This document shows positions 18,975 through 54,544 of a stretch of DNA of 54,988 nt, one piece after another (the stretch's first letter is position 1; each line of letters begins with the position of its first letter). Made by a program: the position numbers and the translations under genes. Origin of the DNA: a phage; assembly GCA_021081985.1 (NCBI GenBank), contig GCA_021081985.1_3639.2; one strand, given 5' to 3'. The notes beneath the pieces were generated by a model that saw only the letters and a list, made by a program, of their open reading frames with translations, made no database searches and was not told the origin of the DNA.

Positions 18975-19772
18975 ATGGACTGGAATAAAGAGTTTACAAC
19001 CAAAGAGATAAGGTATCTCAAAACACGACTCTTTTTCAAAAAGAGGAATACCAAAGCGAGAGGTATAGAGTTCAATCTGACAGAAGATGACTGGTTTATG
19101 ATGGGCAACGGATTACTTGGGAAAGGTGTTTGTGATTACACAGGCCTACCTTTTTCTGCGACACCTAATGACCCCCTCTACCCGTCTGTTGAACGAATAG
19201 ATGACAAAAAAGGGTATGTTCGTGGAAACGTTTGTGTAGTCGGTAAGAGAGCAAACCAGTTAAAAGATTTTCTTGTAGACAAAAAGAAAGCTCTAACGAT
19301 TGTAGATCCACTCGACATGGATATCGTCCAAGGAATGATGTTAAATATGTCAAAGGATCACTTGGAAAAGTTAAAACTTAAATACATACCTACGGAAACA
19401 GATATGAAAGAGACAGAGAACGTAATTATTGATGAGCAGGTTGAAGAGATGAAAGAAAAATCTCTTCCTGACGATGTTGAAATTGCACTTGCATACGCAA
19501 ACTACTGTAAAACATTTGCGGAAGCAGGTATGAATGTTAGCGTTACGTATGCACAATTTAAGGCTAAATATTCAAGAAACACCTGTTCTCTAACAGGGGA
19601 GAAGTTAACAAAAACACCAAAACCTATTCTCATTATGGATTTAGATCTTGGGTTCGCAAAAGACAACTTTATTATTGTTTCTGAAAAGATGGAAACAGCA
19701 TTAACACAACTCATGATCAATACGAAAATGAGTTTACCAAAAATCACAGCTATGCTGAATAAGGTGGTTTAA
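18975..19772 (+). CDS. HNH/AP2-like putative homing endonuclease with a duplicated module
   Basis: 265 aa; two copies of a C-x2-TG ... ID ... G-Y/F ... N module (CDYTGLPF...ERIDDKKGYVRGNV and CSLTGEKL...MDLDLGFAKDNF). Residues are degenerate relative to canonical HNH. Confidence 0.4.
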   Translation: MDWNKEFTTKEIRYLKTRLFFKKRNTKARGIEFNLTEDDWFMMGNGLLGKGVCDYTGLPFSATPNDPLYPSVERIDDKKGYVRGNVCVVGKRANQLKDFLVDKKKALTIVDPLDMDIVQGMMLNMSKDHLEKLKLKYIPTETDMKETENVIIDEQVEEMKEKSLPDDVEIALAYANYCKTFAEAGMNVSVTYAQFKAKYSRNTCSLTGEKLTKTPKPILIMDLDLGFAKDNFIIVSEKMETALTQLMINTKMSLPKITAMLNKVV

Positions 19773-20276: not shown

Positions 20277-21713
20277 ATGCAAAAAGACGAATATGAAATG
20301 ATTGCCAAGTTAGAGAAGGATGCTGTAAAAGTTATCCAATCGGCACGAATAGCTCTTTTAAAGTACAGACCATTTTACGGGACTTTGTTAAGTTCTCTAC
20401 CCTTAGTTGCTAACTGGAAATGGTTGCCAACAGCAGCGACTGATCACAAAAACCTCTACTTCAACCCTGAGTTTATTATGGGTATGCCTGAAGAAAGGAA
20501 GAAGAAGGTTTTTGAGCGTGTGGATAATCACCCCACAATGACACAACAAGAAAAAGATGACTATAAAGACTATGTGAACGTATTTTATCGTAAGAAAACA
20601 CCCAAAGAGGTTGTTGTTATTCTTATGCACGAGCTACGTCATATTACTAACGATCATTTATCCCGTGGAAAAGCATTTGATTCTAAAACCTACAACACAG
20701 CAGCAGATCATTATATTAACACGGATTTAGTGGTGTCTGATCTTGGGCCACGCTCCAGCCAGATGTGTTTCTTCCCAATGGGGAAACAGACAACCTTTGA
20801 CAAAGGTAAAGAGTTTGGGTTTATGGCTTATTGCTACTGTGATTTTAATTTCCACGGTAAGACAGCGGAGGAGATTTACAGTCTCATAAACAAAGGCCAA
20901 CCGTCTGTTGGTAAACCTATGGGCACACACATAGGTGATTATGATCAAGACAGCAATATCCTAGGATATGAAGATCCTCACCCAGTGCCAAGCCAAGCAG
21001 AAAAAGATGATAATATGTCGTGGTCATCTGGTCTTATCGAGGCAGCGATGGAAGCAGCGGGAGGAGAGGGGCCGAAAGAGGTGCGTGACGTTATTGCAAG
21101 AATGCGTAAACCACACATAAATTATCTTCAGATAATCAAACAGCGTATGCTTTCTCGGATCAAGTCTAACCTGACATACAGGAAACCATCTCGTAGGTCT
21201 GGATCTATGACACAGGCACTTCGGCAGTATGGAGCTATTGAAAAAAAACAGCATATTGTTTTACCAGGAAGGGAGTACGATAATACTATAGATATAGTTA
21301 TTGGCTTCGATGTGTCTGGATCAATTTCGAAGGCGAATTTAGACAAAATCTTCGGAGAAATTGTAGGATTATGCCAGCTTTACCGCGTTTTTCGCGTGAC
21401 ATTGTTCTGTTGGTCAACAAAAGTCGGAGAGGTTAAAGTTTATACACATGATAATATCAAGGAAATGCTTGATTATAAAGTAAATTCTACGGGTGGGACA
21501 CTTGCAGCATCGGCTTTTGAGTATATTGAAAATAACATTTTTGATGCAAAAGACGTTATTATTTTTACAGACGGGTATATAGAGGATTTAAGCCACAAGA
21601 AAAAAGATTGGGGACGCAAGTGGGATATTCTTTGGGTTATTTGTGGTCGCGGAAATAATAAATTTGTACCACCTTTCGGAAGGGCTGTAAATTTAGATGA
21701 ACACGCAAAATAA
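20277..21713 (+). CDS. VWA-domain protein with N-terminal putative HExxH metallopeptidase domain (DUF2201-like)
   Basis: 478 aa; HELRH zinc-binding-like motif in the N-terminal half; MIDAS motif D-x-S-G-S in VIGFDVSGSIS in the C-terminal half. Confidence 0.65.
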   Translation: MQKDEYEMIAKLEKDAVKVIQSARIALLKYRPFYGTLLSSLPLVANWKWLPTAATDHKNLYFNPEFIMGMPEERKKKVFERVDNHPTMTQQEKDDYKDYVNVFYRKKTPKEVVVILMHELRHITNDHLSRGKAFDSKTYNTAADHYINTDLVVSDLGPRSSQMCFFPMGKQTTFDKGKEFGFMAYCYCDFNFHGKTAEEIYSLINKGQPSVGKPMGTHIGDYDQDSNILGYEDPHPVPSQAEKDDNMSWSSGLIEAAMEAAGGEGPKEVRDVIARMRKPHINYLQIIKQRMLSRIKSNLTYRKPSRRSGSMTQALRQYGAIEKKQHIVLPGREYDNTIDIVIGFDVSGSISKANLDKIFGEIVGLCQLYRVFRVTLFCWSTKVGEVKVYTHDNIKEMLDYKVNSTGGTLAASAFEYIENNIFDAKDVIIFTDGYIEDLSHKKKDWGRKWDILWVICGRGNNKFVPPFGRAVNLDEHAK

Positions 21714-22131: not shown

Positions 22132-22239
22132 AATTTAACCACACAGGGAGGCTAACGCACGTAGTCTCCCATATGTCCCCATTTCAGGGACATGGGTATG
22201 TCCCCGTTTTGGGGACACAATACTAACTGATCAAATTAA

Positions 22240-22440
22240 ACTAACTTATAAGATCTATTAAATATAATACTACGTATTATAATACTATGATCTATTTAAT
22301 ATGATCTAATATAATATAAATTATATAATATAATATAATTTAATATAATACTACGTATTATATATAATATATATATATATATATATTATATAAAATTTAT
22401 TTAAAATACATTAAGTCTTGAAGAATGTCAAGACTTGATT
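22240..22440. repeat. A/T-rich low-complexity tract with TATAATA-type repeats and a (TA)n run
   Basis: Repeated TATAATACTACGTATTATA, AATATAATATAAT and ATATATATATATATAT in a non-coding interval. Confidence 0.6.
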
Positions 22441-22625
22441 TTAAATATTTTTGTTGATATGATTCGATTGAGTCGAATCGTATGGTTCGATGATTTCGAA
22501 TCATAGAGTTCATAGTGTTTTGCCTGAAAGCATGAGTCGATGAGACTCTTCAGGCAATACGTGAGTGTGTAAGATGCTCACTGCGCTGATAGCTTGTGAT
22601 CATCTAACCCTCATGAGCCATTCTG

Positions 22626-24920: not shown

Positions 24921-25745
24921 ATGACAAGTATTTTACACACGACAGGTATTTTACCACACTATCAGAAGGACTATTCTTTCCCTGATTTATCTGGGGATAT
25001 GTTGCAAATATACGACAAAGTGCAAGGCGAAGTGTCGGAGCTACAGTTTAGTTCAGACCCTGATGATGAGCAAGAGTTTGATAAACAGATTTGTCGTGTA
25101 GAAAACGAGCTTATAGAGCTACAATCATTAGCCAAATCAACAGATATCGAAGACTTAAGGCGATACGTTGAGAATCTTGAAAATTTAGTGTTCGGGCTTT
25201 CGCAAGCTATTATAAACATTGGTGAAATTGCTAAAATTGCCTCTGACAAGTTGCCAGACAACGCAGAAGATATTGAAGAAGCGTTGCAGAATATCTGCTA
25301 TGAAGGAAGTTCTGCTCTCGGTTGTGAATGTAATCTAGGAAATGCTCTTGAAGAACGTGGGTGGAGCCTGTTCCAAAAAACTTTTGTTTATCGTGTTATT
25401 GGTGGTGAGTTCCCACGACTCTTACAACTTAATACCCTTTTTGGAAACAGTCAGAGTGATAATATTGCATTAGGTATTGATGGCTGGTTCTGCTTAAGAG
25501 GTAAAGAATTAACATTTTGTCGTGGCGATGATGTGTTAATTCTCAATGCTTCTAAACCTGGTGTTGGAATAACAGTGAGACTTAATGGTAAGTCCGCTAA
25601 TTTCCACACCACAGAATTGGCAGATATTTTTATGGACATATTAGATCCTACAGAAGACGAAATTCTTATGTATGAAATGACCAGTGGAAAAAGATATGAT
25701 ATTTTGTCGTGGAGAAATATTTTCGGTAAGAAGAAAAGTTTATAG
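24921..25745 (+). CDS. Hypothetical protein
   Basis: 274-aa acidic ORF followed by a hairpin at 25776-25798. Confidence 0.45.
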   Translation: MTSILHTTGILPHYQKDYSFPDLSGDMLQIYDKVQGEVSELQFSSDPDDEQEFDKQICRVENELIELQSLAKSTDIEDLRRYVENLENLVFGLSQAIINIGEIAKIASDKLPDNAEDIEEALQNICYEGSSALGCECNLGNALEERGWSLFQKTFVYRVIGGEFPRLLQLNTLFGNSQSDNIALGIDGWFCLRGKELTFCRGDDVLILNASKPGVGITVRLNGKSANFHTTELADIFMDILDPTEDEILMYEMTSGKRYDILSWRNIFGKKKSL

Positions 25746-26010
25746 TATGATATTTTATCGCTGATATTTGTTTTCCCTGTGATATTTTGTCACAGGGAGA
25801 AGTTTCAACAACAGATATTTTCTTGATACTTTAAAATTCTACCAGAATTTTAAATTCTGTAAATTTAGAAAACTATTACTTATAAGCGTTTCGACACAAT
25901 TTTGTTATGAAAGCCTTGTTTTTATATAAAAACCTGTTTTAGCATGAGTGGTAGGATCACACTCCATACTACCTTTATTCCTACAGATGAGCACCTCCAT
26001 GTCCGAAAAC

Positions 26011-26200
26011 TCGGTTCTCGATCGAAAATTCATTTTCTAAATCGTATTTGCTCCTTACGGAGAAAATTTTTTAGGGCTACAAATTTCAGTTCTCGATCGG
26101 TTTTTCGATTTCAAAATCGTATTTGTTTTTTCTTGCGAAATTTTTCGCACGCTCAGTTCTCGATCGAGTTTTCAAAATCGAAATCGTATTTGCTCTATAG
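26011..26200. repeat. Three imperfect direct repeats (GTTCTCGATCG ... AAATCGTATTTG), 67-75 bp period, with flanking A/T palindromes
   Basis: GTTCTCGATCG at 26014, 26089 and 26156; AAATCGTATTTG at 26039, 26114 and 26181. Confidence 0.6.
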
Positions 26201-26601
26201 CGCGAAAAAATTTTTATGGGTATCATAATTCTATCACACACTTAAACGCAAAGCAACATAAAAATTTTTGTTGAATGATAATCATTCTCATTTGCAGAAT
26301 GACAGGTAGGATTGGTGTCTTATCCTCCCCCGTTGACCATCGTCGCCGTAGTTTGAAGTTTATAGCCGTTCTCGGCTTATCTCTTTGTTAGATAGAGATT
26401 AACATAGTTGCCAAAGGAATCAAGCGTTAATTGTAATCTTTACGTTTCTTTACAAATTTATTTTGGACGAGTTACCGGCGATCGACCTTACAACCAGCGC
26501 CATGGTATGTTAGCCCCGCCTTTACGCCGTGGGGATGGCGTTTCCTCTTTTGTATGTTAGTCATAATAAGCCCAATCCCTGGGCTTGTCAAACATTTTTA
26601 T

Positions 26602-26865
26602 CTATTTATTTTCTTGCCAGGTTAGGACACCTAACCAGAAATGGCAATCACCTTTCGCCCATTGTGGTATATTGCTTTCTTTCCCACCTTCTCGCGCCCA
26701 GGAATAACCGCCCGTGTAACTTTGCAATTGATAACTATCCTCGACCTTATAATCTGACAGGTTGAGAACTGTTTCTACCTTTAAGCCCGTTGCGCTCGCT
26801 ACCTGGTGGATAGTTCCCCCTTGCCAGCCTAACGCGTACATAAGGTGCATTGTGGTAGTGGTCAT
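26602..26865 (-). CDS. Hypothetical protein, divergent from the early cluster
   Basis: 87-aa ORF; GAGGAA upstream of ATG on the minus strand. Confidence 0.35.
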   Translation of the reverse strand: MTTTTMHLMYALGWQGGTIHQVASATGLKVETVLNLSDYKVEDSYQLQSYTGGYSWAREGGKESNIPQWAKGDCHFWLGVLTWQENK

Positions 26866-26950
26866 TTTTCCTATTCCTCTGTTAGTTGGTTAGTTGTTAA
26901 AATTGTATCTATAATCAGCCAGGTTTGCAAGGCAAATAAAAGAGAAAAAT

Positions 26951-26996
26951 TTTTTAAAAATAGTATTGACAGCGGGGGGTAGTATAGATCTACTAT
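26951..26996 (+). promoter_or_regulatory. Putative sigma70-type early promoter with A/T-rich upstream element
   Basis: AAAAATAGTATTGACA with TTGACA at 26966-26971; the -10 is ambiguous (TATAGAT or TACTAT). The same AAAAATAGTATTGACA element recurs at 32021-32037. Confidence 0.4.
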
Positions 26997-27050
26997 GTGC
27001 ACATCAAGGCGATACACCGCCACCAACCAACCTAAAAGGGGTAAATTAAT

Positions 27051-27674
27051 ATGAAAACCATCGTTAACGCTGAGAATGTATCTTTCGATAAGTTGAACGA
27101 CGAACAAAAAGAAAAAGCCATTGATCTTATTCGTGAGCGTGAAAGAGAAAGCGCCGATAATTTCTTTGCGGATAGTGTCATTGAAGACTATAAGAATGAC
27201 ATTTTACCAGAGTACGGGATCGATGACGCGGTTATCTATTGGTCAGGATTCTGGTCGCAAGGCGACGGCGCATCAATCAGCACTGACAGCGTGGATATTG
27301 AAAAATTTTTAAGAAAAGTTAAATCTTTAACAAAATTTAGAGGTATCCGCAAACTATTTGATCTCGGTGAATATAGCCAGTTATATGCAAGCATTGAGCG
27401 GGATAACTACAGCCGTTACCATCATGAAAATACTGTATCAGGTTACGTTGAGACTATGTATTGCGGTGATTTAACGGCAAAACAGGAAGATCTGATCAAT
27501 CAGCTTGAAAACTTGTTAACTGAAACGATCCGCGATCTGTCTTGTAAACTTTACAGAGATTTAGAATCAGCCTACGATGACCAGTTTACAGATGAAGCCA
27601 TCACCGAGTCAATTGAAGCCAATGATTATCGTTTTGATATTGATGAAGATGGAAAAGTTTACGCTATCGCTTAA
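27051..27674 (+). CDS. Acidic hypothetical protein (first gene of the early cluster)
   Basis: 207 aa, Asp/Glu-rich; RBS AAAAGGGGTAAATTAAT before ATG. Confidence 0.5.
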   Translation: MKTIVNAENVSFDKLNDEQKEKAIDLIRERERESADNFFADSVIEDYKNDILPEYGIDDAVIYWSGFWSQGDGASISTDSVDIEKFLRKVKSLTKFRGIRKLFDLGEYSQLYASIERDNYSRYHHENTVSGYVETMYCGDLTAKQEDLINQLENLLTETIRDLSCKLYRDLESAYDDQFTDEAITESIEANDYRFDIDEDGKVYAIA

Positions 27675-31697: not shown

Positions 31698-32031
31698 ATC
31701 GAGATCCGCACGATAACCAATATCGACAATTCAAGCCGTTTAATTTATAAATCTCATTCGATAGCTTACAGCTTGGAAACATCAACAAGCTGCATACAAC
31801 AAGGTGAGAGCTTGCCCATTCTAAATAGTGCCGATGTATTTGGCGCGGTTGTTGCAATTGTAAATGATGTTTTTTCTCGTTGATTGGTGTTAATATTATG
31901 TTAGAGAATATCGTGTTTTGGTGTGGTGTCGTTATCGCTGTTATGGTTGGCATCCTGGCGACGATGGCGAACATTGTGATCTCAAACAACCTGGCAGGGT
32001 AAAAATTTTTTAAAAATAGTATTGACATACT

Positions 32032-32100: not shown

Positions 32101-32370
32101 ATGATGAACATTTCTAAAACTACTTTTAACTTTGCTAAAAAGCGTGGAATTGAGCTTGAGCTAGTCGAAGCAGATGATCGCTTGCTCCTGGCTTTTTATG
32201 AAGCTAAAAACGAATGTGAGTGGATGTTCTCTTATAATGTTAATCATGATTGCCTAACCTGGCGCGGAAATATCTATCTTTCAAACGAAGTGAAAGAGGA
32301 ATTACCCGCCACGATCACGACTGAGAAAAAACTACGTGAGGTTATTGACTTCATCTCTAAAAGTATCTAA
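32101..32370 (+). CDS. Hypothetical protein
   Basis: 89 aa; RBS ACGAAAGGTAAATA before ATG. Confidence 0.45.
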   Translation: MMNISKTTFNFAKKRGIELELVEADDRLLLAFYEAKNECEWMFSYNVNHDCLTWRGNIYLSNEVKEELPATITTEKKLREVIDFISKSI

Positions 32371-34952: not shown

Positions 34953-35429
34953 GCTCTAATAAACATGATAAGTTTTATCTATCAAAACACCACACAGAAC
35001 AAAAATGAATAAAACGCGGTATCGAGCTAAACGAGGATAGGCAATACAACGGCAAGGCTAAACACTTAAGGCCGTTACAACGCGATTTAGGCCGCTTAAA
35101 ATCGATCCCCACCACAAACAACCCCCACAAAATGACCAAAACGACACAACATTACTTAAATGATAACCATTATCAATAACATAAGCATTTTTATGCGTTT
35201 TTAGTGAATATCTATTTAAATGATAATGACTCTCAACAACAAAATAACACGACCGAAGCGATTTAATCGCCTATCACAAAATAAATCAATTGTAAAGAAC
35301 AATTTAAAAGCTGCATAGGTGGCGCGACCGTAGGGAGCGACACAATAACGCAGTAGTAACCCCTCCCCCTCACTCCTTACAGTCGCCCGGTATCGGGCTA
35401 GCGTTATTATGTCGCTACGCGCCAACGCG

Positions 35430-54019: not shown

Positions 54020-54238
54020 CGCACCATTACGTGCTGCTGCATGTCACCATGCAGATCAGACCATATCTTCATGCTTAAAGCATGTCTGCCGTTTGGGGTG
54101 TCATCAGCTTACACTCTACATCCTTACATTCATCAGGATTGGTCGTTAGGCATTTACGGTTGATACCGATTTAGCACGGGATTCCCTCCATAGAGGATTC
54201 CCCCGTTTAGGCAGATTTTACATGAGCAGTTATAGTTT
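54020..54238 (-). other. Group I intron (ORF-less, about 220 nt) within nrdD; boundaries approximate
   Basis: Minus strand CUAAACGGGGGAAUCCUCUAUGGAGGGAAUCCCGUGCUAAAUCGG closely resembles the T4 td intron core as recalled; R-like AACGACCA and S-like GAUAUGGUC show a compensatory P7 change (GACCA/UGGUC); GNRA hairpin CUGCAUG-GUGA-CAUGCAG near the 3' end; P1 candidate exon CAUGGGU with guide GCUCAUG. Confidence 0.7.
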
Positions 54239-54544
54239 ACCCATGCTTGTAACACGCCCGTCTGAAGAACCTGTTACCTTTTTATTCAACGGTACAGATA
54301 TGAAATCTGGATAAATCCTTTCAACACAACACTCCATGGCTAATTGCTTTAAGTCGTAGTTTGGATCGCCAGGCTTCATGTTTACACCATCTTCCAAGAA
54401 GAAGATAACTTTTGGAAAAACAGGTGTGACTTTATCTTTGCCAAGTCCGTTTTTGTGAACAAGAAAATAATTCTTTGTAATCATTCTCCCAAAATAGGAA
54501 GTATCAAGCCCAAGGCTCAAGGTGATAAATGGGCATTGCATTGC
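54239..54544 (-). CDS. nrdD: NrdD internal exon; boundaries approximate
   Basis: ORF 54230..54541 (MQCPFITLSLGLDTS ... RVTSMG); the in-frame stop lies just inside the following intron. Confidence 0.55.

Follow-up and report, generated by a model that had tools for sequence, protein, structure and literature searches.

The window analysed here (the whole stretch of 54,988 nucleotides from phage contig GCA_021081985.1_3639.2, assembly GCA_021081985.1) carries three imperfect direct repeats in an intergenic region around positions 26,012 to 26,215. Our comparison of this triple repeat with its counterparts in other phages suggests, with a probability of roughly 0.7, that it is a non-coding array bound by protein at the DNA level. 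The conservation of its boxes, its fixed and unequal spacing, its lineage-specific variants, its restriction to a single locus and its tolerance of inversion would together fit a DNA-level platform for a phage-encoded protein. The array is best classed among repeated cis-acting elements that bind protein; its architecture is unusual in its long units, fixed geometry and apparent invertibility, and we have found no description of it. A fuller proposal, in which a phage-encoded binder on this three-unit platform marks the region where replication starts, is put forward tentatively, and a role in the control of transcription is almost as likely.

Sequence comparison identified the window phage as a virulent myovirus of the subfamily Vequintavirinae, with Escherichia phage Av-05 (Avunavirus), vB_EcoM_TH18 and phages 18-1-2, 19-1-2 and 24-2-1 as its closest relatives (~94-95% identity). 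The array lies within a 1.3-kb stretch (25746-27050) without a plausible + strand gene, flanked by a gene for a protein of 274 amino acids (aa; 24921-25745) and by the next early gene (27051-27674).

Structure of the array

The repeat finder returned one family of three 63-nt copies (26010-26072, 26085-26147 and 26152-26214), which start 75 and 67 bp apart and share 70-76% identity over the whole unit. Tandem Repeats Finder reported nothing for the array because the units are only ~70% alike. Each unit combines a box A (core CTCGATC) and a box B (core CGTATT) with an A(n)T(n) tract that begins 12 nt past box B in every case. There are exactly three matches to the composite pattern GTTCTCGATCG-N14-AAATCGTATTTG (26014-26050, 26089-26125 and 26156-26192), against a chance expectation of 0 and 0 matches in 100 dinucleotide shuffles, and no further copy was found in the 55-kb window even when 3 mismatches were allowed.

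In unit 1 (26012-26072), box A (GTTCTCGATCG, 26014-26024) contains a GATC at 26020 and box B (AAATCGTATTTG) occupies 26039-26050; a small hairpin, CTCC-TTAC-GGAG, stands just before the A4T6 tract at 26063-26072. Unit 2 (26087-26148) has box A at 26089-26099 (GATC at 26095), TTTTC at 26102-26106 and box B at 26114-26125, and its A3T5 tract lies inside the palindrome GCGAAATTTTTCGC (26135-26148). Unit 3 (26154-26215) follows the same plan, with box A at 26156-26166 (GATC at 26162), TTTTC at 26169-26173, box B at 26181-26192 and an A6T5 tract at 26205-26215; within its box A, CTCGATCGAG forms a 10-bp palindrome. Inspection by eye for motifs of IHF, Fis, CRP, LacI-family proteins, Lrp/pap-GATC boxes and H-NS gave partial resemblance only, which we did not count as evidence.

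An earlier note on this DNA, made from the sequence alone, had described three imperfect direct repeats spaced 67-75 bp apart and interleaved with A/T palindromes. The repeat is real by both the repeat finder and the composite pattern, the start-to-start distances agree, and the A/T palindromes (A4T6, GCGAAATTTTTCGC and A6T5) are present. Its description of the locus as upstream of the early cluster was only loosely right, since the array sits within the + strand early region, ~830 bp before the next + gene; in those ~830 bp lie a minus-strand open reading frame (ORF), two candidate small RNAs, promoters and a box resembling that of the host iron repressor Fur (Fur box).

A spurious + strand ORF of 94 aa (25944-26228) covers the array, and the earlier note had called its composition implausible. 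We agree: its translation is basic and rich in F/S/R, and it reads copies 1 and 2 in the same frame but copy 3 in a different one (75 and 67 mod 3 being 0 and 1). The frame relations and start codons over the array are different again in KB57 (spacing 74/66), GAP31 (76/67) and CR9 (78/63). Since the copies fall in differing frames, in a relation that varies among orthologous arrays, what is conserved here is a DNA motif and no peptide.

Conservation among phages

An array-only blastn search found the element in 71 phage records of at least five genera, and the hosts of array-bearing phages include Klebsiella, Salmonella, Escherichia, Cronobacter, Enterobacter, Raoultella, Proteus and Pantoea. 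For comparison, the corresponding gaps were read in about 25 phages. The consensus unit shared by Avunavirus, Seunavirus, Mydovirus and Certrevirus reads gGttCTCGATCga.tTTTCaattTc.AaAtCGTATT, their spacing is 74-78 and 63-68 bp, and units 1 to 3 are always 140-143 bp apart; Certrevirus has kept the boxes and lost the A(n)T(n) tracts. Orthologous copies are about as similar to one another as paralogous copies (0.68 versus 0.64-0.69), and copy-specific orthology is therefore not claimed.

In Henunavirus Hena1 and phage A73 the box reads GA(A)CTTGAG(A/G)GGTTTTTC, a variant with no GATC and with a different box B, and Hena1 has a spacing of 76/69 despite its variant boxes. The lack of GATC in this variant implies that Dam methylation is not a general requirement of the element. 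Escherichia coli phages carry all three box variants, which argues for a binder encoded by the phage and not by the host.

At the same position, phage phi92 (Stephanstirmvirinae) has three 63-nt units of quite different sequence spaced 67/75, the mirror image of 75/67. When these units were compared with those of the window, the reverse orientation scored above the forward one in 16 of 18 comparisons, at just 2-4 standard deviations over shuffles. We hold with moderate confidence that the phi92 array is an inverted form of the array, for which the mirrored spacing is a stronger argument than the sequence, and this mirroring suggests a self-contained module that tolerates inversion.

The composite pattern is found at a single locus in complete phage genomes (IMG/VR). 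A scan of 185,579 bacterial and archaeal species genomes gave 10 matches scattered over unrelated taxa, about the number expected by chance on a rough estimate, and none of them in Enterobacterales. No description of the array, or of the Fur boxes and small RNAs beside it, was found in the papers on rV5, Certrevirus CB7 and KPP-1 or in a full-text literature search.

A possible replication start platform

In the mechanism that we propose, the three units would form a docking platform, and in each of them box A, a TTTTC tract and box B are followed by an A(n)T(n) tract, where the DNA is probably bent. A sequence-specific, phage-encoded protein would bind the three units cooperatively and build one nucleoprotein complex of fixed geometry per genome, and the preferred job of this complex would be to mark the replication start region. 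Non-coding transcription from a leftward promoter next to unit 3 (P_L, 26256-26228) and from a second leftward promoter (26591-26563) would enter the array, opening or priming the DNA, after which the T7-type primase-helicase would load.

Four considerations lead us to lean towards replication. The first is that no single promoter keeps a fixed distance to the array: the gap to the promoter with the Fur box varies (0-4 extra Fur boxes intervene), no P_L equivalent was detected in CR9 or phi92, and the phi92 array appears inverted. The second is that conserved promoters would send non-coding transcripts toward the array: P_L and the 26591-26563 promoter both point at it and at the A+T-rich flank beyond. 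The third is that the window encodes a T7-type primase-helicase and a Dda-like helicase, alongside which no known initiator was recognised. The fourth is that the origin of rV5-like phages has not been located, the authors of the rV5 study having failed to place it by skew (PMC3606486). The left flank beside the array would be an origin-compatible context: it contains a further repeat family, and one stretch of 80-100 bp in it ranks second in the 55 kb for low stability. Furthermore, relatives of the window phage have T7-style terminal repeats (PMC9862379), which would make promoter-driven initiation of the T7/T4 kind a reasonable precedent.

Several observations weigh against this proposal. 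The consensus DnaA box TTWTNCACA does not occur in 25746-27050, and its 9 occurrences in the window are at chance level. Units 1 and 3 are ~142 bp apart, about 13.5 helical turns, and the three units lie off one helical face, such that simple cooperative side-by-side binding is not obvious. The missing P_L in CR9 and phi92 counts here as well, as does the weak sequence relationship between the phi92 units and those of the window. The A+T-rich left flank is modest, the least stable stretch is not at a fixed place in relatives, and the A+T content of the window peaks 3.6 kb away (22206-22450). Neither neighbouring protein gave a hint of an initiator or of a DNA-binding function: the 87-aa protein has a confident structural model for which no structural neighbour, DNA-binding or other, was found, and the AlphaFold model of the 274-aa protein (32-sequence alignment) has a pLDDT of 39 and is unusable. 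The size and spacing of the units, finally, set them apart from iterons.

Classical iterons are tandem direct repeats of ~17-22 bp, about two helical turns apart. With iteron origins such as lambda ori (four O sites), those of plasmid RepA/pi and SPP1 oriL, the array shares non-coding direct repeats, A/T tracts that would bend DNA and a single locus, and its repeat sequence shifts between related phages as would be expected of a co-evolving binder. However, its units are 61-bp composites 63-78 bp apart, as opposed to ~20-bp sites ~22 bp apart, and it lacks DnaA boxes, a recognisable initiator gene beside it and a strong unwinding element that is conserved. The label "iteron-like" given in the earlier note consequently fails in the strict sense. 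That note had also offered replication origins, partition sites and multi-site regulator binding as meanings of such arrays; a multi-site binding array best fits the comparative data, whereas partition is unlikely in a virulent phage with no ParA/ParB in the neighbouring ORFs scanned.

Origins opened or primed by transcription provide a second comparison. The T7 primary origin consists of promoters 1.1A/1.1B and an A+T-rich stretch, T4 oriF/oriG of a middle promoter and an unwinding element, and lambda ori under transcriptional activation is a further precedent. Like the T7 and T4 origins, the array has predicted promoters whose non-coding transcripts would run into it, and the phage has a T7-type primase-helicase; as in T7, its relatives have terminal repeats of the T7 type and it would lie in the early region, a few kb from the genome end. 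Those origins are without a triple composite repeat, however, and the inward promoter of the array is not present in every genus. The arrangement is also reminiscent of ColE1 RNA I/RNA II, in that a terminator-ended small RNA (26463-26552, + strand) would lie under a strong antisense promoter whose transcript would reach the array 340-545 nt downstream. This resemblance is one of geometry only, with no sequence similarity, and Fur boxes and the other small RNA intervene.

Alternative roles of the array

In the closest alternative, a phage regulator seated on the three units would switch or insulate the adjoining promoter hub in the early programme; the A(n)T(n) tracts may then act as UP-like elements that are contacted by the alpha subunits of RNA polymerase. 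Two promoters that stand back to back, P_L and the Fur-box promoter, lie 15-55 bp beyond the end of the array and share an A5T5 tract (26260-26269), and at least five promoter-like sites are conserved within ~700 bp. A like A/T tract is used as an UP element by early promoters (AAAAATTTTTTAAAAATAGTATTGACA at 26945 and 32001), and a similar consensus has been reported for Certrevirus (PMC7344957). This role would sit less easily with the variable distance to the Fur-box promoter, with the absence of P_L in CR9 and phi92 and with the apparent inversion of the array in the latter, and a regulator with one target locus per genome would be unusual. The units themselves contain no sigma-70-like hexamer pair on either strand, nor did the consensuses of other sigma factors and of T4 middle and late promoters fit them by eye. 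A known counterpart would be rrnB P1, with three Fis sites and an UP element, which is similar in having three sites upstream of a promoter and UP-type A/T tracts; unlike it, the array has boxes that miss the Fis consensus, a distance and orientation to the promoter that are not conserved, and a phage-specific motif.

It is improbable, in our estimation, that the array acts as decoy or sponge DNA, titrating a nucleoid protein of the host, or a defence factor, away from its usual targets during amplification of the phage genome. Its repetitive and orientation-independent character would suit such a function, and the adjoining Fur-box-like palindromes vary from 1 to 5 copies, which would suggest dosage over promoter logic. 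However, the composite motif is absent from the Enterobacterales genomes scanned, which leaves no known natural host target of that form; three box variants in E. coli phages are hard to square with one host protein, and a simple sponge needs no strict spacing.

An element acting in RNA is comparably improbable. The repeats would then work in the leftward P_L transcript, or in + strand read-through from the upstream operon, where they may serve as a protein or Hfq sponge or as a processing or antitermination signal. P_L would indeed transcribe all three units in the window phage, SSE121, GAP31 and KB57, and the + strand of the array is U-rich and stop-free in one or two frames. Against this, folding of each unit on both strands gave energies ~1-2 standard deviations from shuffles (z -1.9 to +0.9), the predicted fold differed from unit to unit with no conserved hairpin, and inverted repeats such as CGATTT/AAATCG were not retained in orthologous units. 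Rfam returned nothing in the region (gathering threshold over the whole window; E <= 10 over 25700-27100), and a tRNA search found none. On these grounds the array was rejected as a structured RNA, and the absence of P_L from CR9 and phi92 and the apparent inversion in phi92 tell equally against an element acting in its transcript.

A packaging (pac/cos-like) or partition (centromere-like) site is very unlikely. Lambda cosB has three R sites (in the order R3-I1-R2-R1) and P1 pac has repeated GATC-containing hexamers; the array similarly has three repeated sites, with a GATC in each unit of the window variant, and several deposited genomes are opened 0.1-3 kb from the locus. Such record start points are arbitrary or assembly breaks, however: the record of Enterobacter phage EC152 begins inside the array and was merely opened in an intergenic region. 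The GATC is dispensable in other lineages, having been lost in the Hena1/A73 variant. The terminal repeat of Klebsiella phage KPP-1, 514 bp by PhageTerm (116316-116829; PMC9862379), would correspond in this collinear genome to a position ~9-10 kb from the array, and the array is not near terminase genes either. A genome terminus at the array was rejected on this basis, indirectly, the ends having been mapped in KPP-1. Likewise, a partition site was rejected, as the neighbouring ORFs scanned include no ParA/ParB-like family (nor a terminase gene) and the relatives are virulent myoviruses. From the same collinearity, the physical ends of the window phage may lie at 35.3-36.6 kb of the window, a gene-poor interval between converging + and - clusters. 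As several of their defining features were not found in it, the array is not filed as an iteron, cosB or upstream-activating-site member.

Finally, it is hardly credible that the ORF over the array is a real gene for an internally repeated protein: the frame is open for 94 codons and other annotators have called similar ORFs, but its match to PHROG 25933 (E = 8.5e-12) merely mirrors such calls in other records, for example GAP31_043A ("poor ribosome-binding site"), it has no Pfam match, and neither its composition nor its shifting frames and starts are those of a conserved peptide.

The surrounding promoter hub

The 1.3-kb stretch around the array is a conserved non-coding hub: besides at least four predicted sigma-70 promoters and 1-5 Fur-box-like palindromes, it has candidates for two small RNAs and for an antisense promoter. 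P_L (26228-26256, - strand) has the -35 element TTGCTT (26256-26251), a 17-nt spacer and TGa + TAGAAT (26236-26228); it is of the extended -10 type, its start is predicted near 26221 and its transcript would run into unit 3. Counterparts were found in SSE121 and GAP31 (TTGACA-N18-TGa-GAAAAT) and in KB57 (TTGACT-N17-TGa-GATACT).

The rightward promoter that backs onto P_L (26271-26300, + strand) reads TTGAAT (26271-26276)-N18-CAGAAT (26295-26300), and the Fur-box-like palindrome AATGATAATCATTCTCATT (26274-26292) occupies its spacer. Compared with the 19-bp E. coli Fur consensus GATAATGATAATCATTATC (PMC6071977), the box agrees at 15 of 19 positions in two overlapping registers (26271-26295). With a box overlapping its hexamers, this putative promoter answers to the sequence definition of a Fur-regulated promoter. 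One Fur-box-like copy is present in the window phage, SSE121, Hena1 and Shewanella phage 1/4, two in KB57 and GAP31, three to four in Certrevirus and five in phi92; in the extracted loci of relatives the palindromes lie at 1802-1913 (phi92) and 1791-1905 (CR9). Further Fur-like boxes occur in the window at 32233-32251, 35156-35180 and 35222-35240, and the Fur 7-1-7 core has 4 matches in the window versus 0.7 expected. Fur-like boxes in these phages could reflect iron-responsive phage transcription or titration of Fur.

An unlikely extension of the platform proposal would make the hub an iron-gated module, in which Fur on the 1-5 boxes gates transcription into or away from the platform, or in which boxes and array both act as decoys. 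Host iron status would in that case feed into replication or the early programme, as well as into expression of the two small RNAs, and the protein on the platform would belong to a family of phage DNA-binding proteins that is yet to be recognised; in the decoy version, Fur and a second DNA-binding protein would be stripped from the host chromosome.

The second leftward promoter (26563-26591, - strand; TTGACA-N17-TATTAT) is strong and near-consensus. It lies antisense to small RNA 2 and points toward the Fur box and the array, and its hexamers are conserved, with a variable spacer, in every genus examined. At the right end of the hub, a promoter made of an UP element and TTGACA serves the next early genes. 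The sequence AAAAATTTTTTAAAAATAGTATTGACA is a 27-nt exact repeat (26945-26971 and 32001-32027) that comprises an UP-element-like A/T tract and a -35 hexamer, and it marks early promoters at both places.

On the other side of the array, the left flank (25698-25885) consists of five short GATATTT(T/G) repeats (25698-25820) and an 80% A+T stretch (25806-25885), the latter ranking second in the window for low stability over 80-100 bp. The GATATTT(T/G) family starts within the 3' end of the 274-aa gene and every one of the Vequintavirinae examined keeps 3-4 copies of it at intervals of ~13-17 bp; in some genera, two copies of GAAATGGTTTT and three of TTATCTCAAA are also present.

Candidate small RNAs and neighbouring proteins

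Two candidate small RNAs are encoded on the + strand to the right of the Fur box. The first (26307-26387) would end at a terminator-like hairpin, AGCCG-TTCT-CGGCT followed by TATCTCTTTG (26364-26387), and its 3' module is common to Shewanella phage 1/4. The second (26463-26552) would end in a terminator hairpin formed by ATGTTAGCCCC (26507-26517) and GGGGATGGCGT (26531-26541) with a U-rich tail, and its region is 82-88% identical in Stephanstirmvirinae. The hairpin contains G.U pairs and one-sided changes from U.G to C-G that are compatible with the + strand only, and two diverged copies have CCAA/TTGG in place of CCCC/GGGG. Among 5,426 E. coli genomes none matched the small-RNA region, which belongs to no Rfam family either. 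In Raoultella phage Ro1 (2450-3250 of its locus), a 594-bp minus-strand ORF is inserted in the region of small RNA 2 and flanked by a diverged duplicate of this RNA, which is one source of the CCAA/TTGG covariation; this suggests a mobile element that targets the small-RNA-2 locus.

A conserved minus-strand ORF of 87 aa (26602-26865) travels with the hub and has a predicted promoter of its own, TTGCAA-N17-TACAAT, at 26930-26902. For this protein and its 274-aa and 207-aa neighbours, searches gave no meaningful Pfam or NCBIfam match, no PHROG of known function and no significant PDB sequence match. The 274-aa protein has a sub-threshold EzrA coiled-coil match only, and its divergence does not track the box variant, the CR9 protein being 16% identical although the boxes are the same. 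It was set aside as a candidate initiator for its lack of a family and of a PDB match, for its unusable model and for this divergence out of step with the boxes.

Other features of the window

The extreme A+T tract at 22206-22450 is TA-rich and reaches 97% A+T over 100 bp; it is preceded by the inverted repeats ATGTCCCCATTTCAGGGACAT and ATGTCCCCGTTTTGGGGACAC (about 22173-22218), and the assemblies of the related phages 18-1-2, 19-1-2 and 24-2-1 break at it. An unwinding element or an origin could alternatively reside here. Two HNH endonuclease-like ORFs (18975-19772 and 20277-21713, + strand) open the + strand cluster, the first of which also matches PHROGs annotated as Srd anti-sigma factor / sigma-70 decoy. 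A group I intron lies at 54037-54277 on the - strand (Rfam RF00028, 80.9 bits, E = 4.8e-19).

Implications

The rV5-like (Vequintavirinae) and phi92-like (Stephanstirmvirinae) phages are widely isolated and are candidates for therapy, although neither their origin nor their early regulatory circuit is known. The hub, with its Fur boxes, two small RNAs and antisense promoter, may be more surprising than the array and deserving of at least equal attention: putative Fur sites that are conserved across two subfamilies of virulent phages and recur in a Shewanella phage are apparently undescribed in the literature searched. The array itself is a precise, conserved and unique cis element. As an origin, it would define a new architecture of long composite units with fixed unequal spacing in which inversion is tolerated; as the platform of a regulator, it would lead to a novel phage DNA-binding protein.

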